Positions 1-51,451 of a stretch of DNA of 64,000 nucleotides are shown piece by piece (within the stretch, counting starts at the first letter, position 1; the number at the start of each line of letters is the position of its first letter). Source of the DNA: a phage; assembly GCA_012401045.1 (NCBI GenBank), contig GCA_012401045.1_4704.2, one strand, 5' to 3'. A program made the translations under genes and the position numbers. Under the pieces are notes generated by a model. It was not told the DNA's origin and did no database searches. It saw nothing but the letters and a program-made list of their open reading frames with translations.

Positions 1-37
1 CAGGCTCTCCAATGAAGGAGAGCCTGTGGCCGTCAGT

Positions 38-739
38 TTAAGATGCAGATAATCTCGCGTACTTCTGGCGAACATGGTTCTTACGGCGAACTTCGTCGTC
101 CTCGTCACGCCATTCGAGGTAAGCAACGAATCGACGTAACTGCGCCGCCGTCATCGTTGACGAGCGGTCTTCTACGTCTAGAACAACGTAACGAACATCA
201 CCAACGCCATCGCAATCAACGTAACTGAATACCAAAAGGCCATCGCCGTACTCAACGATGGTAACTTCGAATCGTTTATCGAACAAATAAAACAGTTCCG
301 ATTCAATGATCATCGGAATGACGCATAAATCAGCACGATTGAGGATTTCCATCATCACCCGTAACGCGCGAGGAGTATGGCGAGCGAACTGGTCGTTAAA
401 ACGTTGTTTCATCGCTTGTTCCACGCCATCTGTTTTTGTTCCAAACCACGGACGTACTACAGATTTCGGTGGTGTAAGACGAAAGCGATATGCTTGTATA
501 AACAACAGAATATCAGCGACGTTAGGAAATTCTTCCTGGTCTTCGTATATCTTGCGGATAATATCCGGAATCGTAACCATCAAGTATTTCTTATCGCCTC
601 CCACTTTCTCGAGATTAGCAATATGTCCTTCTACCACAGGCTGGTAAACGAAATTATACCAATGACGGTATCTTTCGGTACGTTGGTAGTTTGGGATAAA
701 ATTAAGAATAATACTCACTGCGTGTTTTAACGGGTTCAT
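38..739 (-). CDS. hypothetical protein (233 aa)
   Basis: Long ORF at the end of a co-directional minus-strand gene array; no recognisable catalytic motif. Confidence 0.45.
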   Translation of the reverse strand: MNPLKHAVSIILNFIPNYQRTERYRHWYNFVYQPVVEGHIANLEKVGGDKKYLMVTIPDIIRKIYEDQEEFPNVADILLFIQAYRFRLTPPKSVVRPWFGTKTDGVEQAMKQRFNDQFARHTPRALRVMMEILNRADLCVIPMIIESELFYLFDKRFEVTIVEYGDGLLVFSYVDCDGVGDVRYVVLDVEDRSSTMTAAQLRRFVAYLEWRDEDDEVRRKNHVRQKYARLSAS

Positions 740-753
740 CGGAAGGATCCTTC

Positions 754-1188
754 TTATGTTTTAATATGCACATCGTCAATCCCCTCGGTAATCCAGCCGA
801 TGGGAAGGACAATCGTTGTTATCGTGTTATGGGTGTAATGATTGAGAAAGTGGAAATAGTAATTTTTGTTAGACTGTTCGATCCGTAGGTCGAGGTGCGC
901 GTCTTCAGGTAACCGTAACCAAGCACCGTACAGTTCATTAAACTTACGCTGAATTTTACCGGGGTTCATTGGAACCCCACGACCACGACGATGTAGCTGA
1001 CGTAATGATTCAATCAAACACTCAGAGATACCCGTTGTCGTTCCGTTATCGCTTGTATCAATAACGATGAACTCTCGTGACCCACGACCGAGATAAAAGC
1101 CAGCGACAAAAGCTGCAGCAACAAAAATTATCGTACCGATACCAATATACCAATAGTAAGTATCCATAACGACCTCACTTATACCCAA
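754..1188 (-). CDS. hypothetical membrane protein (144 aa, N-terminal TM helix)
   Basis: Hydrophobic N-terminal segment YWYIGIGTIIFVAAAFVAGFYL; 10-nt overlap with upstream gene suggests co-translation. Confidence 0.45.
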   Translation of the reverse strand: MGISEVVMDTYYWYIGIGTIIFVAAAFVAGFYLGRGSREFIVIDTSDNGTTTGISECLIESLRQLHRRGRGVPMNPGKIQRKFNELYGAWLRLPEDAHLDLRIEQSNKNYYFHFLNHYTHNTITTIVLPIGWITEGIDDVHIKT

Positions 1189-1712
1189 TAGTCGGCAAGC
1201 GGTTTTACCTTATTAATGGGCAACTGTACTTTACCGATGTTCTCTACATCCGCATCAGCGTAGAGAACAATTTTATCACCGTCTCTTTCCCAACGAATAA
1301 TGAATCGACCAGGAAGAAGATTACTCTGTTCAAGAGACGCAGTAACCTGTTGTGTTAAAACAGACAACCAAGCAGGCATCAGTGTTGCAACATCTAAGTC
1401 ATTTGACCATTCAGCGCGTTGCTCCACTGGACGTAACATACGTTCGACGGTGCGTTGAACTGTTGCGGTGATATAGCCTTTATCTTCGTCACTGATTGGA
1501 TCAGGACGAGACACAAAACGTTCAGCAGGCTTGTGGGTAATATATTCATGCAAATCGATGAGTGGTGTTGTCATAGTACTCGCTCCATCAGAATGTAATT
1601 GGGTAACCCGCAGGGTTGTCTGCATGCTATTCAGAAGCGCAAAAGCGCCATAAACAACAATGATACTAAGTACGACCAAAACAGAAATCATTAATGTGTA
1701 TTGCATTGTCAT
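1179..1712 (-). CDS. hypothetical membrane protein (177 aa, N-terminal TM helix)
   Basis: Hydrophobic N-terminal segment LMISVLVVLSIIVVYGAFALL followed by soluble domain. Confidence 0.45.
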   Translation of the reverse strand: MTMQYTLMISVLVVLSIIVVYGAFALLNSMQTTLRVTQLHSDGASTMTTPLIDLHEYITHKPAERFVSRPDPISDEDKGYITATVQRTVERMLRPVEQRAEWSNDLDVATLMPAWLSVLTQQVTASLEQSNLLPGRFIIRWERDGDKIVLYADADVENIGKVQLPINKVKPLADYWV

Positions 1713-1807
1713 CTCCTACTCACACGTATCTTGAAGATTAGTTAAAATCAACAAAAGAAAAAACAATATAAAGCAAGGTCCTCTGATATCAGAGGACCTC
1801 GGATCAA

Positions 1808-2464
1808 TTAGCTTGCAGCTTCTTCATTTGTATCAGGTTTGCTTCCCCCTAACAAACCGTCAAACAGACCCGTATGTTTCAGGTAGAAGAGAGCGATAGC
1901 GCCCATTGCTGCTGCGCTCGTCGCCGTTAACGCAACCCCGGCACGATACTGCCATTTACGGTCGGGCTTTTGATCAAGAGCCATACGACGCATGTATTCA
2001 GCCTCTGCTTCATTCCGATGAATTTCGGATTCAGCCAAGCGGGCTAAGGTATCGCGGTCAAGGTTATCATAACGTACGTTCATGGTGGTTTCCTCTTGTT
2101 TGGAAGTTGATTGCTTAGTGGATTCTTGGTCAACAGTCGTTTCAGATGGTTCAAACGGCTGGTTGTTCATTTTCTGATCTTTATTGGTCATGATAGACTC
2201 CTTCGATTTTTGAGACGAAATTGATTTAAACCATCGTGGATGGCGGTATTCAGTTTTACATGTGCAGTTAAGTTTCTCGTGCAGGAAAGCGTAAAAACGT
2301 TTTGCGCCTACACGTAAGGCTTTCAGCATTACCCATCCACGAGCACTCAAACGGTGTAGCTGTTGCGGTATGTCGAGTTTCCTAGCCAAGCGAAAGTATC
2401 TTTCAATCACTTCGATAGGAAACCATTGTTGTTCCACATCGGTGAGACTGAAAGTCTTATCCAT
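1808..2464 (-). CDS. hypothetical protein with C-terminal TM segment (218 aa)
   Basis: ATG at 2464; C-terminal hydrophobic stretch VALTATSAAAMGAIALFYL; conserved 24-bp promoter-like motif lies 24 nt upstream. Confidence 0.5.
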   Translation of the reverse strand: MDKTFSLTDVEQQWFPIEVIERYFRLARKLDIPQQLHRLSARGWVMLKALRVGAKRFYAFLHEKLNCTCKTEYRHPRWFKSISSQKSKESIMTNKDQKMNNQPFEPSETTVDQESTKQSTSKQEETTMNVRYDNLDRDTLARLAESEIHRNEAEAEYMRRMALDQKPDRKWQYRAGVALTATSAAAMGAIALFYLKHTGLFDGLLGGSKPDTNEEAAS

Positions 2465-2488
2465 GATTGAAATCTCGCTGGCTTACTT

Positions 2489-2512
2489 CACTTAGGTAAT
2501 ATAGCCGTGAAA
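2489..2512 (-). promoter_or_regulatory. conserved 24-bp promoter-like motif, copy 1 (minus-strand reading TTTCACGGCTATATTACCTAAGTG)
   Basis: Identical 24-mer also at 15021-15044; close variants at 43179-43202 and 51362-51385; each lies 25-140 nt upstream of a minus-strand gene start. Confidence 0.45.
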
Positions 2513-2614
2513 AATGTTGGATTAAGTTAAATACCGCAACCGCAGCTAATTTTATAGGCTTTTAGCCTAAACCAATCATCTTCGGAATCATCATCTTTGA
2601 AACAGGAATCTATC

Positions 2615-11145: not shown

Positions 11146-11164
11146 AAAAGAAATGCTATACAAC

Positions 11165-11199
11165 CTCCTTCCCCGGCCTTGACGGCTAGGGAAGGAGGA
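11165..11199 (+). terminator. GC-rich hairpin terminator (variant of the conserved hairpin family)
   Basis: CCTCCTTCC...GGAAGGAGG stem followed by ATTATAGTTTATTTATT. Confidence 0.5.
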
Positions 11200-11213
11200 T
11201 TATAGTTTATTTA

Positions 11214-11603
11214 TTAACGCGTTGCATTCTGGATGATTTCTTTTCCGATCTTAACCAAAGCGGGTATCTGTACAGCGGTTGCGCCTCGATGACGAAACGC
11301 GGTCGTTAACGCGGTATCGATACTCACCGCACGTCCGTGAAGACGATCGAAATAGACTTGAGTGATTGCGGTAGCGTAATCCTTTCGCTGTTTCTTGGTT
11401 TGGCTCAACAGCGCCGCACTATGACTAACGATGAAGTAAGCGATTAAGAAGAACGCCGCTGACCGCGAACCAGGTAGAAAACCTTGTCGCTTAGGAAGCA
11501 TCTCACAATCGCGAACAGTATTATCGTTCGCGAGCTCTTCCATGTCAACACAGCATAATTTTGCATAGGTGTGGAGATAGTGGGTAAAAGTTGAATTTAA
11601 CAT
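11214..11603 (-). CDS. hypothetical small protein (129 aa), central hydrophobic segment
   Basis: ORF in array of small co-directional genes. Confidence 0.4.
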   Translation of the reverse strand: MLNSTFTHYLHTYAKLCCVDMEELANDNTVRDCEMLPKRQGFLPGSRSAAFFLIAYFIVSHSAALLSQTKKQRKDYATAITQVYFDRLHGRAVSIDTALTTAFRHRGATAVQIPALVKIGKEIIQNATR

Positions 11604-11708
11604 TTTCTTTCCTCGATTGCCATGAGTTCAATGTATAGCTTAAACGTCACAGAACGACGTATAACGGTTTGTTTTAATTTCTAAGGGGTTTCCTTATCTA
11701 AGATTGAA

Positions 11709-12071
11709 TTAAAGCGTTCTGAAGAGTTCTGTAGCGTTCTCGTCACGTAGACAGGCTTCGTTCAACAATTCAGCTAACAGCTTCGACCGAACTTCAACAA
11801 ATGTCCTGAGGCGATGCTCCCATTCTAAACGGATAGTGTACGTATTATCCAGGTTTTTGTAATCAACGACAGATGTGGAACAACGGGCTTCGCGTTTGTT
11901 CACAGCACTCCAAACATCACGGATAACCGTCACGCCTTTCTTGGTACACGTAAACGTTAAAATAAAGCGATTATTCGCTGCTTCTTCACGGACATGACTA
12001 AATTCACTTCGTAACGATGAGACTTTGATAAGTCGGTCAATAGCTAACGATAAACCGATACGTTGTTGCAT
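11709..12071 (-). CDS. hypothetical small protein (120 aa)
   Basis: ORF in array of small co-directional genes. Confidence 0.4.
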   Translation of the reverse strand: MQQRIGLSLAIDRLIKVSSLRSEFSHVREEAANNRFILTFTCTKKGVTVIRDVWSAVNKREARCSTSVVDYKNLDNTYTIRLEWEHRLRTFVEVRSKLLAELLNEACLRDENATELFRTL

Positions 12072-12072
12072 A

Positions 12073-12498
12073 TCAAATCCCCTCTTTCAGAATCTCATTA
12101 AGACCGTCAGTAATCCAGTCGAACTTCGTCTTAATCATGGCTGGGTTCAATCCATATACTTCCCACACAAGCTGGGGTTTATGTGTTCCATCGTCCAAAC
12201 AAAGCACATCGATTGAGAGTACCATACCACCCGTCAATTTCATGTTCTCGCAACTACGAAGATATGCGGATTCTAGCAATACTTTCCCTAACGCAGTGCA
12301 AGCAAATGTTAACCGGGAAGAGTACAGGTACGATGACGTTTTACAGTAGGTTGCTGATATCGGTTGAATATGTTTGCGGAGTTTGGCGTCTTCACGTAAA
12401 AGCAATAACGTGTGATGTAACCGCGTATGCTCGGTAACCGATGAGCTATACTCACCGATGCACTCTTCGGCGACTGATTTAGGCCATTTAATTTGCAT
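12073..12498 (-). CDS. hypothetical small protein (141 aa)
   Basis: ORF in array of small co-directional genes; 1-nt gap to next gene. Confidence 0.4.
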   Translation of the reverse strand: MQIKWPKSVAEECIGEYSSSVTEHTRLHHTLLLLREDAKLRKHIQPISATYCKTSSYLYSSRLTFACTALGKVLLESAYLRSCENMKLTGGMVLSIDVLCLDDGTHKPQLVWEVYGLNPAMIKTKFDWITDGLNEILKEGI

Positions 12499-12513
12499 GT
12501 TCGATTCCCCTTG

Positions 12514-12957
12514 TTAGCAGTACGTGTCGTTCAACACGCGACTCACGTCTAAATGTTCTAGTTGATGTATAATGCCATCAGCAATGCGTTGTAGATAGGC
12601 TGTCTTATCCAATACCGAATCCGATGAAATCGCCCAGTAGGCTTCTGATACCCGATATTCGCTACCTTCACCGAGACTGACCTGATTAACCAGCTTCACA
12701 TCAGCGTATCTCGTCCCACGTTCAGCGTACCAGTAGATGTTTTCCAGTACGTCCTTTCCCGTTTGTGAAAACACAAACCAAAGCTTCACGTCTAAGCCGG
12801 ATACTTCGACAACAACGCAGCGAAGATGATTCTCCAAAGGCGCAAAAGAGGCTAAACGTTCCAGCGCGTTTTGCAGCGTGGGGTGATTAAGCTTTTCTAG
12901 ATCTTTAGCGGGTTGTTTAGATGATAGCGCGATCGATTTACAGAATTTGGTTTCCAC
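12514..12957 (-). CDS. hypothetical small protein (147 aa)
   Basis: GTG start with AGAGGAA SD; 20-bp palindrome 30 nt upstream. Confidence 0.4.
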   Translation of the reverse strand: METKFCKSIALSSKQPAKDLEKLNHPTLQNALERLASFAPLENHLRCVVVEVSGLDVKLWFVFSQTGKDVLENIYWYAERGTRYADVKLVNQVSLGEGSEYRVSEAYWAISSDSVLDKTAYLQRIADGIIHQLEHLDVSRVLNDTYC

Positions 12958-12987
12958 GGTAGGTTCCTCTTGATAGATGGTAGTAAC

Positions 12988-13007
12988 GGGGATACCGCGG
13001 TATCCCC
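12988..13007. promoter_or_regulatory. perfect 20-bp palindrome GGGGATACCGCGGTATCCCC
   Basis: Located between two small minus-strand genes, about 30 nt upstream of the 12957 start; shares GGATACC half-site with palindrome at 26312. Confidence 0.3.
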
Positions 13008-13065
13008 TAAGTCTTTATAACACATTCCAAGCCATATTGGATACAGGCTCGTTACGTTCGATGAA

Positions 13066-13467
13066 TCACATCAGTTGTTCTTTAAGTTGGGTTAACTTAT
13101 TCGCAACGATGGTCTCAACATCGATGATCTTGTTCATGTTGTCGAGGGTATCCTGCCAGATGAAAATATCCACAGAACGGGTTCCGGTTAACCCGTTCTC
13201 AGGACGATGGTCGCGGGTCACGTAGCGTGGTCTCTGCGGGCTGGTTTGTAACTCGATCCAAAGCGCATCTAACGGACCGTGGTCCGTGACACCTAAGGCG
13301 AAGAATTCACCTCGTACGACCAGAACATCATCAGCCGTCCTGACACGGGTTGATCCTTCGTACACCAATTCCATCTTTGCTCGGCAGGCCGGGTTCCCGT
13401 TCCACGCCTGGACGGCATCGGCAAGGGCTATTGACGTTGCGGTGGTGTTCGTTTGATCATGTTGCAT
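13066..13467 (-). CDS. hypothetical small protein (133 aa)
   Basis: ORF in array of small co-directional genes. Confidence 0.4.
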   Translation of the reverse strand: MQHDQTNTTATSIALADAVQAWNGNPACRAKMELVYEGSTRVRTADDVLVVRGEFFALGVTDHGPLDALWIELQTSPQRPRYVTRDHRPENGLTGTRSVDIFIWQDTLDNMNKIIDVETIVANKLTQLKEQLM

Positions 13468-13543
13468 TCTAAGCTCCTGTAACGCTCTCTAAGCGTCGTT
13501 TTAAGTTAAGGTATGTTTCCCTTCCTTGGGTTAGGTTATTGCG

Positions 13544-13819
13544 TTACACGGCTTTACAGCTTGCGTAAACCACAACTGTTCCGTTGTTGATTGCCTCAAC
13601 AACATCCTGGGTCAGTTTGGTCGCGAGTTTATTATCCGCATTCGGTACGTAATAACCTTCTCCTGTTTCAGTGACTAGGCGGTAACGTACTAATCCCACT
13701 GTACGCTCGACGCGTATCACCTTTTCAAGTTTGTATTTGATGATCTTCGTCAGGCCGACTGTGTCTGACGCGTAGATTGCTTTATAAACCTTGTTCTTTG
13801 CTGTCGGTTTCATCAACAT
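13544..13819 (-). CDS. hypothetical small protein (91 aa)
   Basis: ORF in array of small co-directional genes. Confidence 0.35.
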   Translation of the reverse strand: MLMKPTAKNKVYKAIYASDTVGLTKIIKYKLEKVIRVERTVGLVRYRLVTETGEGYYVPNADNKLATKLTQDVVEAINNGTVVVYASCKAV

Positions 13820-13859
13820 GATTTCTGTTGTACTTTCCTTTTCGCTTGTTGGTGTTGGA

Positions 13860-14159
13860 TTAAGGTTTAGGTTCCGTTTTGTGTTGTGCGAGTAGTGTGT
13901 TGATCTGCTCCCGTTGTTCTTTTAAGTATGCGGGAAGCTGGTCTTCCCGTACCGTTCCGATTTCCAACGTGATGTACCAGCGTTGTTCGGAAGCCTGCCA
14001 TTGAAAACCGCTCTGTAACCGTAGGATGCTAGGATCACGTACCTTGCTTGCGCTGTAACGGTTGAACCAATCCAGGTATTCTGCTTTCCCTTCCTCGTCG
14101 GCAACGTAACGCTGCACGCTGTTCTTGCCTTTGTTCTCGTATCCCGTTGCACGTATCAT
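13860..14159 (-). CDS. hypothetical small protein (about 99 aa)
   Basis: Start taken at internal ATG 14159, which forms an ATGA overlap with the stop of the upstream gene (track start 14213). Confidence 0.4.
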   Translation of the reverse strand: MIRATGYENKGKNSVQRYVADEEGKAEYLDWFNRYSASKVRDPSILRLQSGFQWQASEQRWYITLEIGTVREDQLPAYLKEQREQINTLLAQHKTEPKP

Positions 14160-14938
14160 GCGAACGTTTCTCCTGTAACGTGTTGTGGACGTTGTAGCAT
14201 GGTAGCATCCCATTGTACGATCCGGCTCCGGCTTACCAGCATCATGACGGATTCATCGTCAAGCCCTGGTTGCGCAACCGGCAACCAACGTTCGTTAAGC
14301 ACCTTCGCTTCAACGCGTTTCTTGCGGGGATTGTAACGCACCTCGCTAACCCAAGCGAACCCAAGTGGATGCACAACCCGCGGATAATACGTGCGAAGCA
14401 ATTGATGCATCCGATCTGTCACCTCCAAGCTCGCCTCCGCCATGTAAGGTTTCACCGTGGTAAGCTTTTTGGTGTAATACGTTCCAACGGTATGGTTACG
14501 CCAACTTGGCAAGGCATGATCCCCTTCTCTCAGTTTGCTATCCGAGTTCATCGGCCAGACCTGCTGTTTACCGGCCAGCATCGCGTACTGCCGATCAACG
14601 CAACGAACCTGATCGGCGAACAATGGATCCAGAACATCATCCACCGCACCCTTATTGCGATAACCGTGATGTACCACCAACCTGCTTGCGCTCATCGATG
14701 CGGGATGCTGGCTCTTATGCGCATACAGCCCTCCGTCACCGCGAGGGTCGTAAAGATAGCCGCATGCGCCACGCCATATCACCTTGCCTACGGTTCTCTC
14801 GTTTTCAAGCAGCATCGTCGGCCCATCAAGCAAATTGGTGAACCACTGCACCTTCACGCATTCCGCTTGGACATGCTCAGGTAATGCCTGATACTCTTTT
14901 TGGGTGTATAAGGTATCAAAAATGATTTCATCGTTCAT
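14156..14938 (-). CDS. hypothetical protein (260 aa)
   Basis: ATG with AGAGGA SD; first gene downstream of promoter-like motif copy 2. Confidence 0.5.
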   Translation of the reverse strand: MNDEIIFDTLYTQKEYQALPEHVQAECVKVQWFTNLLDGPTMLLENERTVGKVIWRGACGYLYDPRGDGGLYAHKSQHPASMSASRLVVHHGYRNKGAVDDVLDPLFADQVRCVDRQYAMLAGKQQVWPMNSDSKLREGDHALPSWRNHTVGTYYTKKLTTVKPYMAEASLEVTDRMHQLLRTYYPRVVHPLGFAWVSEVRYNPRKKRVEAKVLNERWLPVAQPGLDDESVMMLVSRSRIVQWDATMLQRPQHVTGETFA

Positions 14939-15020
14939 TTAAAAGATCCTCTGTTTTTCACGTTAATTAAACAACGTATTGATTTCTATTTGACAGAACA
15001 CGAACATTGTACGTATCTAT

Positions 15021-15044
15021 CACTTAGGTAATATAGCCGTGAAA
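15021..15044 (-). promoter_or_regulatory. conserved 24-bp promoter-like motif, copy 2
   Basis: Identical to copy at 2489-2512; about 80 nt upstream of the 14938 start. Confidence 0.45.
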
Positions 15045-15151
15045 GGATTTGTGTTACTGTAAGGGTTTTGTTTTTAAGAAGGGATGGATTTAGAAGAGGT
15101 GTTTCAAGGAAGGTAAACGAGGATAGGTATTTTGATTTAAGTAAGTAAGAT

Positions 15152-15249: not shown

Positions 15250-15263
15250 AAAACAATGGATAA

Positions 15264-15752: not shown

Positions 15753-15762
15753 AGAGATTAAA

Positions 15763-27664: not shown

Positions 27665-27674
27665 CCAAACATAA

Positions 27675-27706: not shown

Positions 27707-27715
27707 AATATGCTG

Positions 27716-36773: not shown

Positions 36774-36809
36774 CCTTCTCCCCAACCCGATGAGGGAAGG
36801 GGAGAAGGG
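36774..36809 (+). terminator. conserved GC-rich hairpin family variant followed by T-rich tract
   Basis: CCTTCTCCCC-AACCC-GATGA-GGGAA-GGGGAGAAGG then CTATGCGCTATTTAATTTATT. Confidence 0.5.
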
Positions 36810-36828
36810 CTATGCGCTATTTAATTTA

Positions 36829-37101
36829 TTACGAGGTTAACCACGATTCAATTGTGGTGAGTTTGCTTCTCAGTACGCGCCAACTAGGGTGTGGTGGGAT
36901 CACAGCGCCTTTGTCGATTACGGTTAGCTGAACCTGGTACTTCTGCTGCATACGCGCTACCGTGTCGCTTATCGAGAGGAAAAGCTGGTAACGTTCATAT
37001 GCCGTCAGTTCACTGTCCTGTTGAACTGCGTTGGCCGCTAACGTAATTTCGCGTAAGTCCTTTGCATCCACAGAGACGGTAATGAGTTTATATTGACTCA
37101 T
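36829..37101 (-). CDS. hypothetical small protein (90 aa)
   Basis: ORF convergent with the portal candidate. Confidence 0.4.
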   Translation of the reverse strand: MSQYKLITVSVDAKDLREITLAANAVQQDSELTAYERYQLFLSISDTVARMQQKYQVQLTVIDKGAVIPPHPSWRVLRSKLTTIESWLTS

Positions 37102-37162
37102 ACGGTTTCCTTATCAACTAGGGTATTGCAAATACAATACCCACCGTCGGACGATAAGTTAA

Positions 37163-39721
37163 TTACTGCTCTTCACGTTCCAGCAGATACTCGGAAGCGG
37201 TAATACCGTTTACCGTACGTACTGCTTTCAGACGAGTATCATCGCTCAGAATTACAGTAACAGATTGCAGACCTTTTACTTTGGTTTCGAAGGTCTTGAA
37301 CACCTGATCCAGCATACGAGCAATGCTTGGGTTGGTTGCAGCCGATGCGTGGGTGTAACCGCTCTGATTCAGCTTCAGAATCTTGGCGTTGGTCGGTACG
37401 CGAACAACAACATGCGGGCGCATCGCGAATACGCTGTGATTGAACCAGTAAGCGTCGTTACTATCTTCGTCGGTAACGATGTCTGGATTAACACGCATAT
37501 CCTCGACAGCCGCATCCGCCAAACGACGTTCGATTTCATCGGCGTCCAGAGAGCCATCTTTCTCCAGTTCTGCACGATACTCACTCATGGCAACCAGATG
37601 ACGTTCACGATTCGCTGCGGATTTTTCGTGAGCTGCTTTCAGGTAGTCATGCATGTTGTACAGTTCTGCCATGGAAAGACGAATGTTCCACTGACCTTCG
37701 CCGTCACGATTGCAGTAGAGACACTTCAGCATGTTGACCCAGGTATAGTAGCAATTGGAGAATTCATCTTCAATGAACTTCTGGTCCATTTTAAGATCGT
37801 GAATCAGCCAACCGGACAGTTCTCCGATATCATCAACGAAGCTAGAGATGGTGGTTTCAGAGAAGTTCTTCGGTACGATACGTTTGATCAGCTTATTGAC
37901 GTCTTTGGTCATGCTATCGTTCAGGAAATGCCAAATACGCAGAGGAATAACATCTCGATACTGTTGCATGATCTGACGATAAGCTTTGATATCGTCGCTA
38001 CGACCTTTATCAATAGACAACGCATCCAGGAATTCATGGATTGCATCCAGCTCTTTGTCGGTATAGGTTCCCAGATAGGAATTGACGGTGGCAAGGAATG
38101 CTAATGCGTCGTTTTGGTTGACGTCGGTGTTGGTCTGCTGAATGATTGCCACTGAAGCTTTGGTTTCAGCATCCTCAACGCTTGACGCTGCGATTGCGTC
38201 GGTGACGGTAAACAGTTTCATTTCGCGCTGCTCACCGACAACGATTGGCTCACGTTGAACCGGTTTGTTAAGACTAACACGAACAACTTCTGCTTGCGCG
38301 ATGCGATCCAGTTTTGCCATTTCCTGCTCTGCCATACGACGAGCGGTTGGATCTGATTCAAGTTCGATGTATTCCACTTCTTCCTCCGTGAGGGATGTAA
38401 TGTCAACAATGGTTTCATGAAGAATTCCGTTTTCGTCGATACGTGCTCGACGAGCGAAGTGCCTGAAGTCATACAACGTCGGCCAACGACTATTAGGTGC
38501 AAAGTCTTTGGCTTTCAGACGCATCTGCATAAATTCTTCATGTTGAACAACACGACCGTAACGCTTAGCATCTTCGGTCGCATCAATTGGATTAACGGTC
38601 TTTGTTACCGTAGCAGAACGAGCCGTACGAACGGGTTCCGGTTTCACCTGCGCAGGTTCAGGTTGAACGGGTTTCTGCTGCCCAGCCTTAACATGCCATT
38701 CTGGCTCTTCGTACTGTTCAGCAAACTGTTCAGCCGCTGCAAAGATATCGTTGATACCACCAATATCTCCTTCAGGATTTGTCGAGTAAATCCGTGGTTG
38801 TGGTGCCTCGTAACGCGGCGCTGTGTTAACAGGTACCTCATCAACGATAGGATCGTCATCACCAACATCATACAAACGGTTGAACGCACAATCCTTCGAA
38901 TCGATGTATGATGGCGCTTGTGGTTGGACAACCGTAGGTCGAGGTTGTGTGCCGTATCCTGGTGTTGTTGGAGCCATACCACGCATAACTGCAGGACTAG
39001 GTTGGTATTGCGGTTGTGGGTAGGTTCCACCATACATGGCGTACGCAGGCTGTTGTGGTTGACCATACCCGTTGCTAACCATCGCGCTTGCTTGCGGCCC
39101 ACGATAAGTCATCCCCATCTGCATCACCTGCTGCTTCAAACCACGTGATTTCTGAGCGATTTGCGCCAGGCTTCCGCTTTTATTCAGCTGCGTGTACTTA
39201 TTCGCGGCTTCCGGGTTAATGCGTGATAATTCAATCGCGCGATAATATTCCGGGTACTGATTCGGTTCAAAGAGCCACGTTACAAGATGATACAGCGCAA
39301 CTGTACTCACGGCAGCAGAGACGATCTGGTCATCGGACGCGTTCTGTGGCATCGGGTTGATGTAAGAGAACACGTTCCAACAACAGTCTTCAACAAGCGA
39401 TTCCATCATCATATCGTTATTGGTATAACGTGCGACGAACTCGGTTTGTATTTTGTCTTGCTGAGCGAAGTCTTTCAGGACATTAAAGATGGCTTGACGG
39501 ATTTTGACGATCGTCGCTTCTTGGGTGATGAAGTTATAGTTCTGCTGATATGAGGGTTGTTGGTATTGTGGTGGTTGATAGGCGTTATTCGGGTATGCGC
39601 CGTACGGCGATTGCTGATACTGTTGCTGACTAACCTGTTCAGCCGCATAATTAACCGTGCTCGTATAAGGGTTTTCGCTATAGCCCATTTGTTGATACAT
39701 GTTGTTACTGCCATTATACAT
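37163..39721 (-). CDS. hypothetical protein (852 aa) with Q/Y/P/N-rich low-complexity N-terminal region
   Basis: N-terminal about 60 aa and a second stretch around residues 200-270 rich in Q, Y, P, N, G (QQYQQSPYGAYPNNAYQPPQYQQPSYQQNY). Confidence 0.55.
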   Translation of the reverse strand: MYNGSNNMYQQMGYSENPYTSTVNYAAEQVSQQQYQQSPYGAYPNNAYQPPQYQQPSYQQNYNFITQEATIVKIRQAIFNVLKDFAQQDKIQTEFVARYTNNDMMMESLVEDCCWNVFSYINPMPQNASDDQIVSAAVSTVALYHLVTWLFEPNQYPEYYRAIELSRINPEAANKYTQLNKSGSLAQIAQKSRGLKQQVMQMGMTYRGPQASAMVSNGYGQPQQPAYAMYGGTYPQPQYQPSPAVMRGMAPTTPGYGTQPRPTVVQPQAPSYIDSKDCAFNRLYDVGDDDPIVDEVPVNTAPRYEAPQPRIYSTNPEGDIGGINDIFAAAEQFAEQYEEPEWHVKAGQQKPVQPEPAQVKPEPVRTARSATVTKTVNPIDATEDAKRYGRVVQHEEFMQMRLKAKDFAPNSRWPTLYDFRHFARRARIDENGILHETIVDITSLTEEEVEYIELESDPTARRMAEQEMAKLDRIAQAEVVRVSLNKPVQREPIVVGEQREMKLFTVTDAIAASSVEDAETKASVAIIQQTNTDVNQNDALAFLATVNSYLGTYTDKELDAIHEFLDALSIDKGRSDDIKAYRQIMQQYRDVIPLRIWHFLNDSMTKDVNKLIKRIVPKNFSETTISSFVDDIGELSGWLIHDLKMDQKFIEDEFSNCYYTWVNMLKCLYCNRDGEGQWNIRLSMAELYNMHDYLKAAHEKSAANRERHLVAMSEYRAELEKDGSLDADEIERRLADAAVEDMRVNPDIVTDEDSNDAYWFNHSVFAMRPHVVVRVPTNAKILKLNQSGYTHASAATNPSIARMLDQVFKTFETKVKGLQSVTVILSDDTRLKAVRTVNGITASEYLLEREEQ

Positions 39722-39755
39722 TTCTTACGATCCTTTTTATTTATTCGGTTATGTG

Positions 39756-41552
39756 TCAATCGATTATGTCACGATCGTTAATTTCTACAATTTCTTCATC
39801 GAATCGACCGACGTCTTTCTTCAAGCCTGCATTGGTTGCTGCAACGTCATTTGCAATTTGTGGGGTAATGATTAACCGACCGCGTTCGTCGATAGGTGCG
39901 TACATACTGAACTTCTGACGTCCGGTTGGTTCGGAGTGTGGAAGATTCAGATAGCTTGCGCAGAACGGGATGGAACCACTAACCAAACGACTCTCGTCAG
40001 CCAATGCAGCACCGCCTGCGTTTTGGCTCTGGAGAACAACATGCGTGCTCACTTTGAACAGCATGCAATCACCAGGTGACTGAATCGATGTTGCCACTTT
40101 CTCACGTTTGTCACGATTGCTCTGGATATTGAGAATCGCTTCCGTTGCAACTTGATTTCGCAACGCCTTCTGTACATCGCGATTGGTCATCTCTTTACGG
40201 TTGTTCTGTCGTTTACCACGCTCCGTGGTTTTAAGATGGAACCCCAGTTTAAAGATGCTCTTACGCACATCCTCCATGACATATTCCAACACCATCAATT
40301 CCTTACCGAACATCGTCGTGGTATCAACACGACTCATTTCGATAGTAACATTGTCAATCAGATAGGCCATAAATTCATAGAAGTCGTCGCAAGGAATATT
40401 TTCCTGTTTGAACTTCTTCTGCTGAATTTCGTCAACGTAAAGATCGAGACTGTCGATGTGGTGGTTTACATCACGCAACAAACGCGCATCCGCATTGTTG
40501 TTATTAAAGATAATCAAACCGAGTAATGTACGCCAATGGTCTGGCGCATTCGCGAACTCCTCAACCGGATAGTCTTCCGGAAAACGATCGTAATAACGGT
40601 CGATGAGATACAAGAATGCACCGACAAGGCCAAGAACAATACGTTCCGTGCCTCCACGTCTTACAGCAATTTGAATATCAGGATGTTTGTAACGTACAGC
40701 GCTAGCGCTACGACTTTTACCGCTTTTGCTGATACTAAAACCTTTAGGAATAACCCCCATGGTGCGATAGATTACCCATTGGTCACGCGGAAAATCGCGT
40801 TCAGCAAGGTTCCGTCCGGTTACGGCTTCGACACCTGCAAAACGTCGGAAACACTCACCCACCCCGTACTTCGCAAAGAGATAGTGACCCAGTGTGGTTA
40901 CGCTGGTGTGGTTGATGTTGTCACCGTTCACTTTACTTTGTTTGGTAAGATGATAGATTTGTGACCAGGGTAATGACAGGTAATGACGATAATCGATACC
41001 GGTCGGTGTATCATTGCTCAGGAACTGATACGGCGTACGTTTAACCGTGATTTTGTCACGCGGAAGCATGATGAACGCCATGTCTTTCGTGTAACTGATT
41101 ACCGGGTCAGCGAGCACTGCACTGAGAATGAAGTTCGCACCACGTAGACGCATTTTACCACCCTGACCTACCGCGGGTAATAGGAGAGGATGTCGGATAA
41201 TGCAGTAGTCCTTTCCGGGTTCACGACGGTCACCTGATTCCATCGCGCCGTACCAGCGGAATTCTAGCATCACCATAAACACATCGGATGGCGCAAGGTC
41301 GAAGGTCAGCTTACCGCTATCCTTCCCTTTGGTTTTCTTTCCTCCGCTTAAGTAGTGGAACTGTTCGCGGGCCATACAGCGACGCAGGCCATGATACACC
41401 AGATCCTTAGGTAAACTATCTTTGCTGTTCCGCCAAAGACGATCAACATAGGACTCAACATCTTGCATCTTATCGACGACGATGTTGCGTGCTATCTTCT
41501 CGTTCATCTTCGGTGCAAGCCCAGCGACAGCTTTGCAGAATCTAGGATCCAT
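39756..41552 (-). CDS. hypothetical protein (598 aa)
   Basis: ATG 41552 with AAAGGAG SD (track begins at GTG 41555). Confidence 0.55.
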   Translation of the reverse strand: MDPRFCKAVAGLAPKMNEKIARNIVVDKMQDVESYVDRLWRNSKDSLPKDLVYHGLRRCMAREQFHYLSGGKKTKGKDSGKLTFDLAPSDVFMVMLEFRWYGAMESGDRREPGKDYCIIRHPLLLPAVGQGGKMRLRGANFILSAVLADPVISYTKDMAFIMLPRDKITVKRTPYQFLSNDTPTGIDYRHYLSLPWSQIYHLTKQSKVNGDNINHTSVTTLGHYLFAKYGVGECFRRFAGVEAVTGRNLAERDFPRDQWVIYRTMGVIPKGFSISKSGKSRSASAVRYKHPDIQIAVRRGGTERIVLGLVGAFLYLIDRYYDRFPEDYPVEEFANAPDHWRTLLGLIIFNNNNADARLLRDVNHHIDSLDLYVDEIQQKKFKQENIPCDDFYEFMAYLIDNVTIEMSRVDTTTMFGKELMVLEYVMEDVRKSIFKLGFHLKTTERGKRQNNRKEMTNRDVQKALRNQVATEAILNIQSNRDKREKVATSIQSPGDCMLFKVSTHVVLQSQNAGGAALADESRLVSGSIPFCASYLNLPHSEPTGRQKFSMYAPIDERGRLIITPQIANDVAATNAGLKKDVGRFDEEIVEINDRDIID

Positions 41553-41591
41553 CACACACTCCTTTCAGAAAGTTGCTTAAGCAGATTAAAG

Positions 41592-43028
41592 TTACTTTTT
41601 CGATGACGCTTTCTCAAGAATCTTGAAAAAGGTCATACCTATACCGACAACGGCCGCGGTTATGCTCGCAGCGGCTTTCCAAACATCGACGTTACGTTGA
41701 CGTCGCGCTTCTTCCGCTTCACGTTGTCTTTTTGCCTCTTCATCACGTCGACGTATCTCAGCAGCAAACTCGTCGTGCTTACGTTTGGATTCTTCGTCTC
41801 GACGACGAAGTTCAGCGACGAATTCTTCATGTTTGCGTTTAGCCTCGTCGTCACGACGTTTTAAATCAGCTTGATAATCTTCGTGTATTTGTCTACGTAG
41901 ATCATCTTGACGCTTCATTTCGGCTTGGTGTTGTTCCATCCTACGTTTTTGTTCGTCTTTAAGCTGATCGAGTTCGGCTTTATGTTGTTCATCGCGCAGC
42001 TTTGCGTCGGCGCGATGCGCCTCATGCATCTGTGAGATAACTGCCTTGTGTTCATCCGCCATACGTCGCATTTCAGCCATCACCCCTTTAAGGGTTTCTT
42101 CTGATGCCTTACGTTCGTAGCTACGTTGGTCGAAATCATTTTTGTAGGCTTCTTTTTGGATGGGGTCGCGCCAATGCAATGCCGATTCACGTGTCGGAAA
42201 AACATTGTACTTCCACATCTCTTTTTCCAAATCTTCGACCGGTACGAAGATGGAGTCATTATTCCCGAAGGTAACCAACATGCCTGGCGCGCCTGCTCCA
42301 TTCGTTGGTTTTATTTCGAACGCTTTCCCCAACACGTTAACCCATAAGCTATACGGATTATGAAAGTCGGGCGGCGTCCAATGGATAGTGAGTTGCGTTC
42401 CGAGAATCCGGAAACCCTCTGTTTTTCCCGTCAAGCTCCGCGCGCACGTTGCGATGTAGGGGTGATCAATCCCTTTCGTAACGTGGTCTGCGCTTTTGTA
42501 TTCTCCTTTAACTTTTACGATTGCCACGTTGATTTGCGCGACATAAGCGGGTTGATTAAAGTTCAACGTGTTGAGGTCAATTTGACATATTTCATCCAGC
42601 GTATCGTACCAGTCTTGCTGGTCTAATAGACGCGGCATTTTCTCTGTGTTAACAATACGACGGATATGCGGTTTCCTTATCGCGTAACCTGTACCGTTTT
42701 TAACACGGAGTATATCCCGACGTCTACCCGCGTAGACGAAGTTTCTGAATGCACCATTCGCATTAGATACGTCATGGCTGTCAACTATTACAGGACTACG
42801 AAATTTTGAACGTCGTACGATCCTGAATGTATTGCCGTCCTCAACCCTACCAGGAATGTACTGGAACATATTGTCGGAGGTGATAACCAACACGGTATGG
42901 CCAGATTCATTAATACATGCCCATCCTAATTCCAGGTCATATAACGGTTCAGCATAACCGTCAATGCGATAAGCGTGCGTACCATCCCACGGTTCGAACG
43001 CGGTATCACATATTGGCATGGAGGGCAT
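41592..43028 (-). CDS. tail-anchored coiled-coil protein (about 478 aa): globular N-domain, KR/DE-rich repeat coiled coil, C-terminal TM helix
   Basis: Three tandem 17-aa repeats RRRDEE[AS]KRKH[DE]EF[VA]AE[LI]; C-terminal hydrophobic AAASITAAVVGIGMTFFKIL; ATG 43028 with GGAGG SD. Confidence 0.55.
   Translation of the reverse strand: MPSMPICDTAFEPWDGTHAYRIDGYAEPLYDLELGWACINESGHTVLVITSDNMFQYIPGRVEDGNTFRIVRRSKFRSPVIVDSHDVSNANGAFRNFVYAGRRRDILRVKNGTGYAIRKPHIRRIVNTEKMPRLLDQQDWYDTLDEICQIDLNTLNFNQPAYVAQINVAIVKVKGEYKSADHVTKGIDHPYIATCARSLTGKTEGFRILGTQLTIHWTPPDFHNPYSLWVNVLGKAFEIKPTNGAGAPGMLVTFGNNDSIFVPVEDLEKEMWKYNVFPTRESALHWRDPIQKEAYKNDFDQRSYERKASEETLKGVMAEMRRMADEHKAVISQMHEAHRADAKLRDEQHKAELDQLKDEQKRRMEQHQAEMKRQDDLRRQIHEDYQADLKRRDDEAKRKHEEFVAELRRRDEESKRKHDEFAAEIRRRDEEAKRQREAEEARRQRNVDVWKAAASITAAVVGIGMTFFKILEKASSKK
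41690..41850 (-). repeat. tandem about 51-nt coding repeats (3 units) inside the 41592-43028 gene
   Basis: Repeated ACGACGAAG...TTCTTCATGTTTGCGTTT units encoding the RRRDEEAKRKHEEF repeats; boundaries approximate. Confidence 0.4.
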
Positions 43029-43178
43029 CGTCAACCTCCATCAGATTGAAAACTATCACGCATAATACATTTCCCTTTTCTTGTTCTTATCGAGCCGACA
43101 GCCGACGGTTTCAGCATCGTTCCTAGCGCGAGAACGACCTTACGTGTTGTCTATGCCTTATTCATCGCAGGCGTCTGT

Positions 43179-43202
43179 CACCTAGGTAATGTAAGCGTCA
43201 AA
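43179..43202 (-). promoter_or_regulatory. conserved 24-bp promoter-like motif, copy 3 (variant TTTGACGCTTACATTACCTAGGTG)
   Basis: Downstream of capsid-gene hairpin and about 150 nt upstream of the 43028 start. Confidence 0.4.
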
Positions 43203-43236
43203 TTTTTTCTATTCGCAACGATAAACGGCATAGAAA

Positions 43237-43266
43237 CCTCCCCCAACCCTTGCGGGCTGAGGGAGG
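43237..43266 (-). terminator. GC-rich hairpin (family variant) downstream of the capsid-like gene
   Basis: Minus-strand CCTCCC...GGGAGG stem followed by TTTCTATGCC. Confidence 0.45.
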
Positions 43267-48037: not shown

Positions 48038-48069
48038 CCCTCCTCCAACCCGTAAGGGAAGGAGGAAGG
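48038..48069. terminator. conserved GC-rich hairpin family copy, flanked by A13/T13 homopolymer
   Basis: CCCTCCTCC-AACCC-GTAA-GGGAA-GGAGGAAGG; preceded by 13 A at about 48012-48026. Confidence 0.5.
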
Positions 48070-48085
48070 TTTATGACCGCTTTGA

Positions 48086-48412
48086 TTAACTTATTGTCAT
48101 GAATTCATTAGGTGAAAATTTCCAGCCGTTCTCAGTGAGAAGCGTGTTGAGTTTTGCCGCAACGATAAGCCATGCATGCATGGCCGTTACATCGTATTGG
48201 CGATTCACTCGACGTTGGTTTTCGATATTGATTTGCTCCTGTTCAGTGATGTTTGGATAAAGTGCGATAGCGCTAGGTTTACCCAGCGCGCTAGTCATCA
48301 CCGCCGTACATTCACTGATAATGTTGTTTAAGTGGTAGTTATACACCGTTCCACGCATGACGCGATGACGGCATTCGATAATAGCGTCGTAAATGATTTC
48401 TCGAGTAATCAT
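48086..48412 (-). CDS. hypothetical small protein (108 aa)
   Basis: ORF in minus-strand array. Confidence 0.4.
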   Translation of the reverse strand: MITREIIYDAIIECRHRVMRGTVYNYHLNNIISECTAVMTSALGKPSAIALYPNITEQEQINIENQRRVNRQYDVTAMHAWLIVAAKLNTLLTENGWKFSPNEFMTIS

Positions 48413-48418
48413 GATAAT

Positions 48419-48820
48419 TTAAAACATACGGTCGTTTTTAGCACGGGCGTCCATTACCAGATCGTAGATGCCTGCGGTTCGTAAGCACTCTTCGTAGTAA
48501 CGATGTGTGCCTTCCTCAGCCATCCACGATAACCCTCGGCTATCCGCAACGATAACCAGTTTGTTATTGTTGAACGCACACACCACACGGTAGGTCGCGT
48601 TGTTATTCGGATCGCGAGTGATAAGTTCGTAAACGCCGTTAACAGGTTTACTGAATTCGCCGTTTAACGGAACGAGTTCGGTAGTACCTTCAGCAAACGT
48701 TACGTTGATCGGTGATGGGTCTTTAGCGATAACAGTATATTCCACATTGTGTTCTTTACTGGTCATAATACCGAAGTAAGAACTCACAGGGGAACGCGGT
48801 ACACTAAGAATATTAAACAT
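48419..48820 (-). CDS. hypothetical small protein (133 aa)
   Basis: ORF in minus-strand array. Confidence 0.4.
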   Translation of the reverse strand: MFNILSVPRSPVSSYFGIMTSKEHNVEYTVIAKDPSPINVTFAEGTTELVPLNGEFSKPVNGVYELITRDPNNNATYRVVCAFNNNKLVIVADSRGLSWMAEEGTHRYYEECLRTAGIYDLVMDARAKNDRMF

Positions 48821-48889
48821 AAATGTTGTCCTCTTAATTGGATTTAGATTGTTGGGTATGTGATTGGAAATGAAAACGTTGTTTCGGTT

Positions 48890-49459
48890 TTAGACGATGA
48901 GTGACCAGGTGGTAAGCACCCCACTTGCGAATTCGAGCTTAAGACGTTTACCGATAAGTTGTTGCTGGATCATCTTCTCGGTGATACGTCGATCATGCTG
49001 AACCGCTTTATCAAACGCTTCTTTCGCTTCAGCTTGGTAGAAGTTCGTTTCTTCGTTTTCGTCGATCTCTTCGAGAGCATCGTCGTCGATGTCAGCAAGT
49101 TTCACTCGACCGTTTTCATCAGGTTGTTCTGCAGGTTCATTGTCATACGGCGTGTCTTTTGTTGGTGCGACACGATGTTGCAACTCGACCTGCGTTAACA
49201 TGATCTCCATCTCACCATCGATAGGAATGATTTCATCGGCGCTGCCGTTTTCGGTCAGCTCGCGACTTTCCAGTAATGTCGTCGTAACAGAGAACACCTC
49301 TTCAACAGGAACCTCATCATCGTCGATGGTGTTAACCGTGTTGCTGGTAACTTCAGCAACAACCATCAAATCAAATGCGTGAGGGTCACCTGGCATTTTG
49401 ATTCCTGGAAGTTTGTTGAGGTACCAAGGATCAAGAATCATGATTTCTGGATTAAACAT
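48890..49459 (-). CDS. hypothetical acidic protein (189 aa)
   Basis: Asp/Glu-rich ORF in minus-strand array. Confidence 0.4.
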   Translation of the reverse strand: MFNPEIMILDPWYLNKLPGIKMPGDPHAFDLMVVAEVTSNTVNTIDDDEVPVEEVFSVTTTLLESRELTENGSADEIIPIDGEMEIMLTQVELQHRVAPTKDTPYDNEPAEQPDENGRVKLADIDDDALEEIDENEETNFYQAEAKEAFDKAVQHDRRITEKMIQQQLIGKRLKLEFASGVLTTWSLIV

Positions 49460-49535
49460 CGTATTTTACCTTTCTATGTTAGGTGGATTTCGGATAGAAG
49501 AATCAATGCATAAACTAATTTAAGTTTGTTAAGGT

Positions 49536-50438
49536 TTACTTAGCCTTTGAGTTATACGGACTAACATGTTGTTGTACTCGTTGGATTGTATCGTAGTACG
49601 GGTTAAGTTGATTGAACATGTTGTTGTGTGGGTGATAGCCATATGGCGCATTTTGCCTTGTTGGTGAGAAACCTTGTTGAGAAGGACGGTTTGAATTAAC
49701 CGCGAGTACGTAGTAAACCAAATTTTGGCGGTCGAACGTTCCTTCGTTTTTGAAGGTGTCGGCGTAGGCGCTTACCGCTGGAGCGAGCCTATCACCATCG
49801 GTTGTAATGATTGTGCCATCGGGATAAACTTCCCGAACGACGCACCATGTTCCGATGAGAACATCTTTGGGTGATGTATTACCGTATCCGGTTGTAACGG
49901 TAAGGTAAGTATCGAACCCTTCAGAACAACAAGGATGACGATAGATGGGTCCTGTCATTTCCAGTCTATCGGTGTCACCGCATTTCTCTATTGAGAGCGA
50001 TGATGTGTCGGTTTTGAAATTGTCAAATTCTTTCTTTAAGTCGATTACGGGTTCTTTCGTATAGTACTTCTTGATTGCTTTGACGTAAAGATCGGGAACG
50101 GTTGTCAGCAATCCGTTATACCTGATTCTCAGGTTTTCGAGTAATCCAAAGATGCTCGCGCATGCCTGTTCGCGAGGTTTTGTAAGATAAGAGATCCCCC
50201 CAGGAACGCTGGGATCTTTGAGAAAGAAGATTGCGTTATTGTCGTTGTGCGATGCGTTGAAGAAAACGATTGATTCGATATATACGGAGCATAGGCTGTC
50301 GTTGGCGTCGTCAGATAACACCCAGATGCACTCATCGGTCGTCTTGTTTAAAAGTTCTGTTTTGTCGACCAAACGTTGTTTCATTGCGAGGAAATGTGCC
50401 TGTTGTTCAGCGGATAATTCACGATAAATGGTGGTCAT
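49536..50438 (-). CDS. hypothetical protein (300 aa), paralog of 50524-51306
   Basis: Shared motif IY-x-HP-x-C ... YLT-x-T-x-G ... REVYPDG-x-I; ATG with AAGGAG SD. Confidence 0.5.
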   Translation of the reverse strand: MTTIYRELSAEQQAHFLAMKQRLVDKTELLNKTTDECIWVLSDDANDSLCSVYIESIVFFNASHNDNNAIFFLKDPSVPGGISYLTKPREQACASIFGLLENLRIRYNGLLTTVPDLYVKAIKKYYTKEPVIDLKKEFDNFKTDTSSLSIEKCGDTDRLEMTGPIYRHPCCSEGFDTYLTVTTGYGNTSPKDVLIGTWCVVREVYPDGTIITTDGDRLAPAVSAYADTFKNEGTFDRQNLVYYVLAVNSNRPSQQGFSPTRQNAPYGYHPHNNMFNQLNPYYDTIQRVQQHVSPYNSKAK

Positions 50439-50523
50439 GTTGAGCTCCTTGATTACGATAAGGATGATTGCGGTTTTGTGGTGTTGGTAGGGCCCTAAAC
50501 AAATGAACCCTACTAATATTAGG

Positions 50524-51306: not shown

Positions 51307-51361
51307 GATTGTATCCTCGGTTATTAAGAGAATTTACAACGATAACAGTAACCGCTGTTAT

Positions 51362-51385
51362 CACCTAGGTAATGTAGTCGCGAAA
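51362..51385 (-). promoter_or_regulatory. conserved 24-bp promoter-like motif, copy 4 (variant TTTCGCGACTACATTACCTAGGTG)
   Basis: About 55 nt upstream of the 51306 start, immediately downstream of a family hairpin. Confidence 0.4.
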
Positions 51386-51419
51386 TAAACTGGAGTAATG
51401 CGAAATAAGACAGCATAAG

Positions 51420-51451
51420 CCCTCTCCCAACCCGTAAGGGAAGGGAGAGGG
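51420..51451 (-). terminator. conserved GC-rich hairpin family copy
   Basis: CCCTCTCCC-AACCC-GTAA-GGGAA-GGGAGAGGG just past the stop of the 51456-52823 gene. Confidence 0.5.

Follow-up and report, generated by a model that had tools for sequence, protein, structure and literature searches.

Four copies of a conserved element in a Goslar-like coliphage genome are very probably early promoters of the virion RNA polymerase

What is the function of a 24-nt sequence that recurs, always in the same orientation, upstream of four groups of minus-strand genes in a phage genome, and which RNA polymerase would read it? The sequence lies in a 64,000-nt stretch of phage DNA (GenBank assembly GCA_012401045.1, contig GCA_012401045.1_4704.2), the whole of which was analysed and is called the window hereafter. 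The initial annotation compared the sequence with the AT-rich early promoter element of phiKZ-like phages. We consider, with a probability of about 0.9, that all four copies act as early promoters in a Goslar-like chimallivirus and are read by the virion RNA polymerase (vRNAP).

Escherichia phage vB_EcoM_Goslar (NC_048170) and the window are collinear over the first 62 kb of the Goslar genome, with an identity of 92-97% along the length (about 94% overall). Goslar is a phiKZ-like, nucleus-forming jumbo phage of the Chimalliviridae, and its entire annotated genome was used as a proxy for the remainder of the genome from which the window comes. A scan of IMG/VR with TTTCACGRCTAYATTAC returned Goslar and two more Goslar-like genomes; neither Goslar nor these two genomes are identical to the window. 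The remaining IMG/VR matches, one in each sequence and devoid of a downstream (G/T)TG, were judged to be due to chance.

The exact 24-mer TTTCACGGCTATATTACCTAAGTG is present at copies 1 and 2 only (Table 1) and is contained in none of 100 dinucleotide shuffles. Its core, TAYATTACCTARGTG, occurs four times, on the minus strand only, compared with an expected number of 0.26, and an unbiased repeat search returned the identical four-copy family (family D7). The occurrence of four copies on the same strand is beyond chance; both the sequences quoted originally for two identical copies and two close variants and their common orientation were verified. When the copies were aligned with their flanks, the likeness between them was confined to about 38 nt. 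Counted from its 3' end, the 24-mer is followed by a minus-strand start codon after 25, 83, 151 (ATG at 43028) and 56 nt in copies 1 to 4, respectively, so that the range of 25-140 nt first given holds for copies 1, 2 and 4 and is exceeded by copy 3. The hairpins reported just upstream of two copies are present: GC hairpins precede copies 3 and 4, and each ends exactly 35 nt upstream of its motif.

Table 1. Coordinates of the putative early promoters, early units and hairpins of the window. Matrix scores are given in the order: matrix applied to both window and Goslar, matrix from nine Goslar sites, matrix from six chimallin promoters.
Feature	Coordinates	Strand	Details
Putative early promoter, copy 1	2487..2524 (24-mer 2489-2512)	-	predicted start ~2489; matrix scores 49.0, 45.9, 29.7
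Putative early promoter, copy 2	15019..15056 (24-mer 15021-15044)	-	predicted start ~15021; matrix scores 47.8, 44.4, 19.9
Putative early promoter, copy 3	43177..43214 (24-mer 43179-43202)	-	predicted start ~43179; matrix scores 42.4, 37.0, 26.5
Putative early promoter, copy 4	51360..51397 (24-mer 51362-51385)	-	predicted start ~51362; matrix scores 43.7, 36.7, 16.0
Early unit 1	1..2489	-	genes 1808-2464, 1179-1712, 754-1188, 38-739; internal hairpin 1774-1801; terminal hairpin 1-26
Early unit 2	11164..15021	-	eight small genes, 14156-14938 down to 11214-11603; terminal hairpin and T-tract 11164-11198
Early unit 3	36774..43179	-	genes 41592-43028, 39756-41555, 37163-39721, 36829-37101; terminal hairpin 36774-36808
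Early unit 4	48038..51362	-	genes 50524-51306, 49536-50438, 48890-49459, 48419-48820, 48086-48412; terminal hairpin and T-tract 48038-48069
Non-virion RNA polymerase beta N-terminal-half subunit gene (phiKZ gp123 homolog)	39756..41555	-	599 aa
Terminator hairpin of upstream late gene (major capsid protein)	43237..43266	-	13-bp stem; -26.5 kcal/mol; family D6
Terminator hairpin of upstream late gene	51420..51451	-	-25.2 kcal/mol; family D6
Hairpins of family D6	15718-15760, 27673-27715, 43234-43276, 48036-48078, 51418-51460, 62650-62692		six copies

Each TAYATTAY of the window and of Goslar was listed, and true copies were separated from chance 8-mers by their flanks. The extended motif of about 38 nt is composed, in this order, of an A-rich or CCAAC-type upstream element, TTTCACGrC, TAYATTAC, YTnnr and TGA. 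TAYATTAC is invariant, except for its Y, in the four window sites and in 13 of 13 Goslar sites, and the stretch upstream of TTTCACG is found in four recurring versions (GAAAAAAA, TTAATCCAACA, AACACAAATCC and CAGTTTA) across the window and Goslar copies. It was observed that the upstream version is independent of position: copies 1 and 2 of the window share the 24-mer, and their Goslar orthologs differ from one another at five positions. Orthologs of the copy-2 promoter in four genomes differ solely at positions that are also variable between copies.

Scores obtained with a position weight matrix were bimodal in the window, with four sites at 42-49 and a runner-up at 13. The same matrix identified 13 sites at 29-50 in Goslar, together with a single marginal one, over a background that did not exceed the shuffle maximum of 18.4. 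All 13 strong Goslar sites are on the minus strand, all are intergenic and each points into a minus-strand gene. Beyond the window, the motif is thus strictly intergenic, co-oriented with the downstream genes and not randomly placed, in keeping with the position upstream of gene starts first noticed for the four window copies. The marginal, degenerate fourteenth site (151618-151655; core TACATAAC, score 20.6) is found in the gap that precedes gp165, the non-virion polymerase beta gene; the ratio measured in the knock-down described below is slightly higher for gp165 than for gp166.

Such a motif, whose AT-rich core of some 10 nt has its centre near -10, is present upstream of presumed early operons in every jumbo phage that encodes its own polymerases and, wherever transcripts have been profiled, is the early promoter of the virion polymerase (review, PMC7598289). 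The early promoters of phiKZ and 201phi2-1 have been confirmed by dRNA-seq and ONT-cappable-seq. In a published table of consensus sequences (PMC7058600), the entry for 201phi2-1 is TTAWTAVAA_HYWTTTRARR_BTATATTACDWHDGTG and that for OBP is BSHAWWWWWTTTYARRYAKATATTATYWWADTG; the table also gives WTTTYAAACCTACATTATY for EL, TATATTAC for phiKZ and TTTYARRYAKATATTATYWWADTG for OBP and N1M2. The segment TTTRARR_BTATATTACDWHDGTG of the 201phi2-1 consensus aligns with TTTCACGGCTATATTACCTAAGTG position for position, with equal blocks and equal spacing, and the extended layout, with elements near -20 (TTT...) and near -30 and a (G/T)TG near the start, matches the consensus sequences of 201phi2-1, OBP and N1M2 and agrees with published descriptions of conservation at -10, -20 and -30. 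These phages and EL differ from the Goslar lineage in genus and host, and OBP, N1M2 and EL carry TATTAT instead of TATTAC. In 201phi2-1 the motif sites are located about 10 bp upstream of starts mapped by ONT-cappable-seq.

The comparison was extended with two further matrices. The first, made from the nine Goslar sites that lie beyond the part of the genome with homology to the window, gave scores of 36.7-45.9 to the window sites and 13.8 to the runner-up. The other was made from six chimallin promoters (phiKZ, PhiPA3, Eowyn, RAY, Noxifer and RSL2) and contained no Goslar sequence; scanned over about 128,000 window positions, it placed the four sites at 16.0-29.7 and the runner-up at 9.7, and it also recovered most Goslar sites. 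The resemblance noted in the initial annotation is therefore borne out, as the copies match the published consensus sequences and a matrix from other genera ranks them as the top four sites. The same element is present upstream of chimallin in seven genera (for example, gaaaaaaaTTTGAGATTTATATTACTAAATTGA in phiKZ and gaaaaaaaTTTCAGGGTTATATTACCTAGGTGA in Goslar). In phiKZ, the promoter of gp054 (chimallin) has a mapped primary start with the early motif, in addition to a middle start; this early promoter is P54E, the reference for its class, and the non-virion polymerase does not use it in vitro.

With phiKZ, which has 28-32 early promoter sites, the Goslar lineage shares the TATATTAC core, the T-rich element near -20, the A-run near -30 and the (G/T)TG near the start, as well as sites upstream of the chimallin and non-virion polymerase subunit genes and a two-polymerase strategy. 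Unlike phiKZ, it accepts TACATTAC besides TATATTAC, conserves TTTCACGrC more strictly, carries a C after the core, has a smaller number of sites (13-14 per 237 kb) and infects E. coli. The logic by which a packaged polymerase transcribes early genes encoding a second polymerase is also that of the uracil-DNA jumbo phage AR9 and of coliphage N4; however, the consensus of AR9 is a different one and its genome contains uracil, the giant polymerase of N4 consists of a single subunit and reads promoters in hairpin form, and neither system is related in sequence to the window motif. For phiKZ and AR9 only, it has been shown that early transcription requires neither the host RNA polymerase nor newly made proteins. 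Our literature searches found no earlier account of promoter motifs in Goslar. The class as such is familiar, motifs of this type being identifiable by bioinformatics in all such phages according to the review (PMC7598289), and its annotation here appears correct but unsurprising; the Goslar-lineage set appears not to have been described before.

Expression data bearing on the motif come from a Goslar preprint (10.1101/2023.09.20.558163), which reports RNA-seq of a ChmA (chimallin) knock-down, where the phage genome is arrested in the early-infection vesicle together with the virion polymerase. According to this preprint, the transcriptome of the knock-down matches that of a 5-20 min wild-type infection and vesicle-stage transcription is attributed to the virion polymerase; the preprint itself is silent on promoters. 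We used the per-gene counts of its Supplementary Table 2, which are gene-level, come from a relative (Goslar) and were taken at 30 min in the knock-down. Goslar genes form two kinds of blocks in the ChmA knock-down: the log2 fold change is about -1.3 to +1.4 in retained blocks and about -3 to -8 in lost ones, late genes being decreased 8- to 200-fold or more. Ten blocks are retained: gp001-004, gp014-021, gp037-040, gp044-047, gp070-075, gp094-159, gp162-gp246, gp243-gp225, gp214-216 and gp200-201. A motif copy is present at the 5' edge of every one of them, the other three Goslar copies are inside retained blocks, and none is in a lost region. The chance that 13 random gene junctions would cover all ten boundaries is about 1e-15 (hypergeometric P).

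In the knock-down, the read density per base rises 402-fold at the Goslar ortholog of copy 1 (upstream of gp004), 133-fold at that of copy 2 (upstream of gp021), 31-fold, relative to the major capsid gene, at that of copy 3 (upstream of gp040) and 49-fold, between gp048 and gp046, at that of copy 4 (49716-49753). Steps of 25- to 133-fold were observed at five of the other six boundary sites, and a 5.8-fold step at chmA; the same ratios were about 1-2.4-fold in control cells. The four early transcription units proposed originally coincide with gp001-004, gp014-021, gp037-040 and gp044-047, all of which are on in the vesicle-arrested infection. For roughly 150 early-expressed genes, Goslar has 13-14 sites. 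The 29-kb block gp159-gp106 contains one motif only, at its head, and gp183 and gp236, neither of which has a recognisable motif upstream, show a jump of the log2 fold change to about +1. These observations may result from very long early units that read through hairpins or from a second type of early start signal; as the jumps occur without a motif, other early start signals may exist.

The log2 fold changes of the Goslar orthologs are +0.2 to +1.3 for unit 1 (gp004-gp001), +0.8 to +1.4 for unit 2 (gp021-gp014; -4 to -7 for the flanking genes), +0.7 to +1.2 for unit 3 (gp040-gp037) and +0.7 to +1.3 for unit 4 (gp047-gp044). In all four units a strong GC hairpin immediately follows the last stop codon (-20 to -37 kcal/mol, z between -4.3 and -7.6). 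The folding energies are -20.4 kcal/mol for unit 1, -31.2 kcal/mol (z = -6.1) for unit 2, -36.9 kcal/mol (z = -7.6) for unit 3 and -27.6 kcal/mol for unit 4, and the Goslar read density falls 62- to 238-fold at the ends of units 2-4, with the 238-fold step at the 3' end of unit 3. The latter unit, which had been drawn from 43028 to 37163, is indeed an early block, as gp040-gp037 are retained, and needs a new end, since it includes one more gene, to 36829. The description of unit 1 as a membrane-protein operon running from 2464 to 38 is roughly right, because three of its four proteins have one predicted membrane (hydrophobic) segment each; the fourth has none, and the first gene is followed by a strong internal hairpin (12 bp), across which the read density is 2.6-fold lower in the Goslar data.

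The product of the polymerase subunit gene in unit 3 matches chain E of PDB 7OGP (PHIKZ123) with E = 2.9e-40 and phrog_2943 with E = 1e-119, and gp123 is an early-gene product in phiKZ (PMC4666361). By its position, upstream of chmA in Goslar and at the head of the unit with the PHIKZ123 homolog in the window, the motif drives the expected gene classes. Scans of the genes downstream of the copies against Pfam, PHROGs and NCBIfam gave nothing besides phrog_2943, PDB sequence searches with the 478-aa and 852-aa proteins of unit 3 gave nothing significant, and Rfam at gathering thresholds together with a tRNA scan found no RNA genes in the window. The hairpins that precede copies 3 and 4 belong to family D6, a near-palindromic GC hairpin (CCTTCCTCCAACCCGTAAGGGAAGGAGGAAGG-like) found in six copies at gene-block ends. 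These terminators are conserved in sequence and in many cases precede a TTATGCTGT-like tail; they are reminiscent of terminator motifs described as conserved in phiKZ and 201phi2-1.

We propose that the sigma-less multisubunit virion polymerase, injected with the DNA, would recognise the element of about 38 nt and start just downstream of it. TAYATTAC would be centred near -10, TTTCACGrC near -20 and the A-rich or CCAAC-type stretch near -30. A core centred near -10 would put the start some 7 nt past TTAC, at the final G of the conserved GTG or, for (G/A)TG generally, at or next to its last G, and transcription would proceed leftwards from the predicted positions of Table 1. Each promoter would drive a minus-strand block of mostly uncharacterised early genes ending at a strong GC hairpin, and one block (unit 3) would supply a subunit of the second, non-virion polymerase, which would later transcribe the remaining genes. 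Goslar virions contain the virion polymerase (gp78, gp196, gp205, gp207 and gp210), the genes of which are outside the window; we infer its recognition of the motif from the homology to phiKZ and from the vesicle-arrest experiment.

Two published observations bear on the predicted start. Positions -2 and -9 are conserved in 201phi2-1 and variable in phiKZ. When the last G is taken as +1, they correspond to the G/T of (G/T)TG and to the T/C of TATAT(T/C)AC, both of which vary among the genera compared by their chimallin promoters; the remark on these positions fits the predicted register. In the Goslar preprint (10.1101/2023.09.20.558163), the 'TSS sequences' on display have their first nucleotide 91 nt before the chmA start codon, about 25 nt further upstream than expected from our register, which predicts a 66-nt chmA leader. 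The legend seems to designate the start of the displayed sequence rather than a mapped end; it is ambiguous and not of single-nucleotide resolution.

The core contains TATATT, which is identical to the sigma-70 -10 hexamer TATAAT at 5 of 6 positions, and the E. coli RNA polymerase might use the copies as host promoters straight after injection; copy 2 even has a weak 9-of-12 match (GTAACA-16-TATATT at 15057-15030). Nevertheless, no -35 element at a spacing of 16-18 nt is common to the four copies, no consensus match overlaps copies 1, 3 or 4, and the invariant TTAC, YT, TGA and TTTCACG are not sigma-70 determinants. Sigma-70-like sites are at or under shuffle expectation (23 vs 27; 15 vs 23), related phages transcribe without host polymerase, and Goslar DNA is in a vesicle with vRNAP at the arrested stage, all of which make the use of host promoters extremely unlikely. 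A promoter of the middle or late class, read by the non-virion polymerase or by both polymerases, is very unlikely, if less so. This enzyme is not strictly absent from the knock-down cell, because early proteins, including its own subunits, are still made there, and phiKZ gp054 provides an example of a gene with both early and middle starts. Published middle and late motifs are nevertheless different: they carry TATG where transcription starts and, at about -22 to -24, a TACT or AT-rich element. The phiKZ enzyme does not transcribe the homologous early promoter in vitro, and a genome trapped with vRNAP in the vesicle still expresses the units, while its late genes drop.

The element might also be mainly the binding site of an injected or early phage regulator, with polymerase recognition taking place elsewhere. 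Co-injected proteins may contribute to promoter recognition by vRNAP, and the upstream part of the motif exists in four distinct versions. Yet the position, orientation and spacing to gene starts are those of a core promoter, and the core is conserved across genera with differing accessory proteins; we regard a regulator site, which is inseparable from a promoter that requires a factor, as no more probable than use by the non-virion polymerase. That the copies are parts of a mobile or recombinogenic repeat without any role in transcription has a likelihood close to nil. Indels are found on either side of the copy-4 terminator-promoter module in close relatives, and one relative has a 43-nt insertion flanked by a 13-nt direct repeat at copy 2, but the similarity between copies ends after about 38 nt without terminal repeats, and all copies are intergenic, co-oriented with genes and exactly at expression boundaries. 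The 260-aa proteins encoded downstream of copies 2 and 4 are unrelated, and a duplicated cassette of promoter plus gene, considered because each of these two copies precedes a 260-aa ORF, was rejected as well. A mobile repeat is thus excluded as a stand-alone explanation, and a recombination role could only add to the role of early promoter.

A stem-loop followed at a fixed distance by the early promoter is found at copies 3 and 4 of the window, with an identical 35 nt, and at Goslar 86698. These modules have some likeness to the PeSL cassettes of T4-type phages (composites of a terminator and an early promoter; PMC2839356, PMC4122927), namely a stem-loop plus early promoter and the presence of indels beside one module; the T4-type cassettes belong to another phage family, with another polymerase and promoter sequence, and a role of the window modules in recombination is putative. 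The copy-4 module is nearly identical in three genomes (window, Goslar and IMGVR_UViG_3300011560_000001). On its downstream side, the window contains a 1.8-kb, two-gene segment (49513-51301; 300 aa and 260 aa, no family matches), where Goslar has only 89 bp; relative to Goslar, this insertion begins five bases into the first ORF after promoter copy 4 and corresponds to the first two genes of unit 4. In Goslar, the annotated gp047 overlaps the promoter and the terminator, and its start was therefore probably mis-called.

On the other side of the module, IMGVR_UViG_3300011560_000001 (L024 1623-2273) has an extra segment of about 650 bp, with an ORF of about 210-243 aa, between the gp048 homolog and the module hairpin; this segment is missing from the window and from Goslar. 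In the same genome (L015, about 3037-3130), a 43-nt insertion flanked by the 13-nt direct repeat TTACCTTCATGAT is located at the predicted start of copy 2. Between the window and Goslar there are three indels, one of which adjoins a module. The other two are inside genes, which makes the evidence for recombination points thin. We consider it possible, although rather doubtful, that the modules (GC hairpin, 35-nt spacer, early promoter) are also PeSL-like recombination points that swap accessory early genes, and that the four upstream versions of the motif are sub-classes differing in timing or strength.

The region preceding copy 2 has features of its own. An ORF-free gap of about 820 bp (14939-15762), also present in Goslar, separates a late gene from this promoter copy. 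It contains a series of inverted repeats (15250-15700) whose folding on either strand is much more stable than that of shuffles (z = -6.2 and -5.7), and then a G-poor tract, about 200 nt long, for which no structure is predicted. The gap has no Rfam or tRNA match and might encode a non-coding RNA or act at the DNA level, for example as an origin. The conserved giant-phage sRNA was considered for this region and rejected, as that sRNA belongs upstream of a tail gene. Elsewhere in the window, two large virion or tail-fibre-like genes (18397-20445 and 24126-26279, homologs of Goslar gp025 and gp029) contain tandem arrays of a 183-nt (61-aa) repeat, and the repeats are also similar between the two genes.

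The current understanding of how such phages work is unchanged by these results. They provide a sequence-level definition of the early regulon in Goslar-like coliphages, the E. coli model for nucleus-forming phages, with four promoters and four promoter-to-terminator units in the window and 13-14 promoters genome-wide. At least one annotation, that of Goslar gp047, is corrected by the position of a promoter. The motif set accounts for the block structure of the published Goslar transcriptome; it names templates for the study of promoter finding by a sigma-less virion polymerase and offers host-independent promoter parts.
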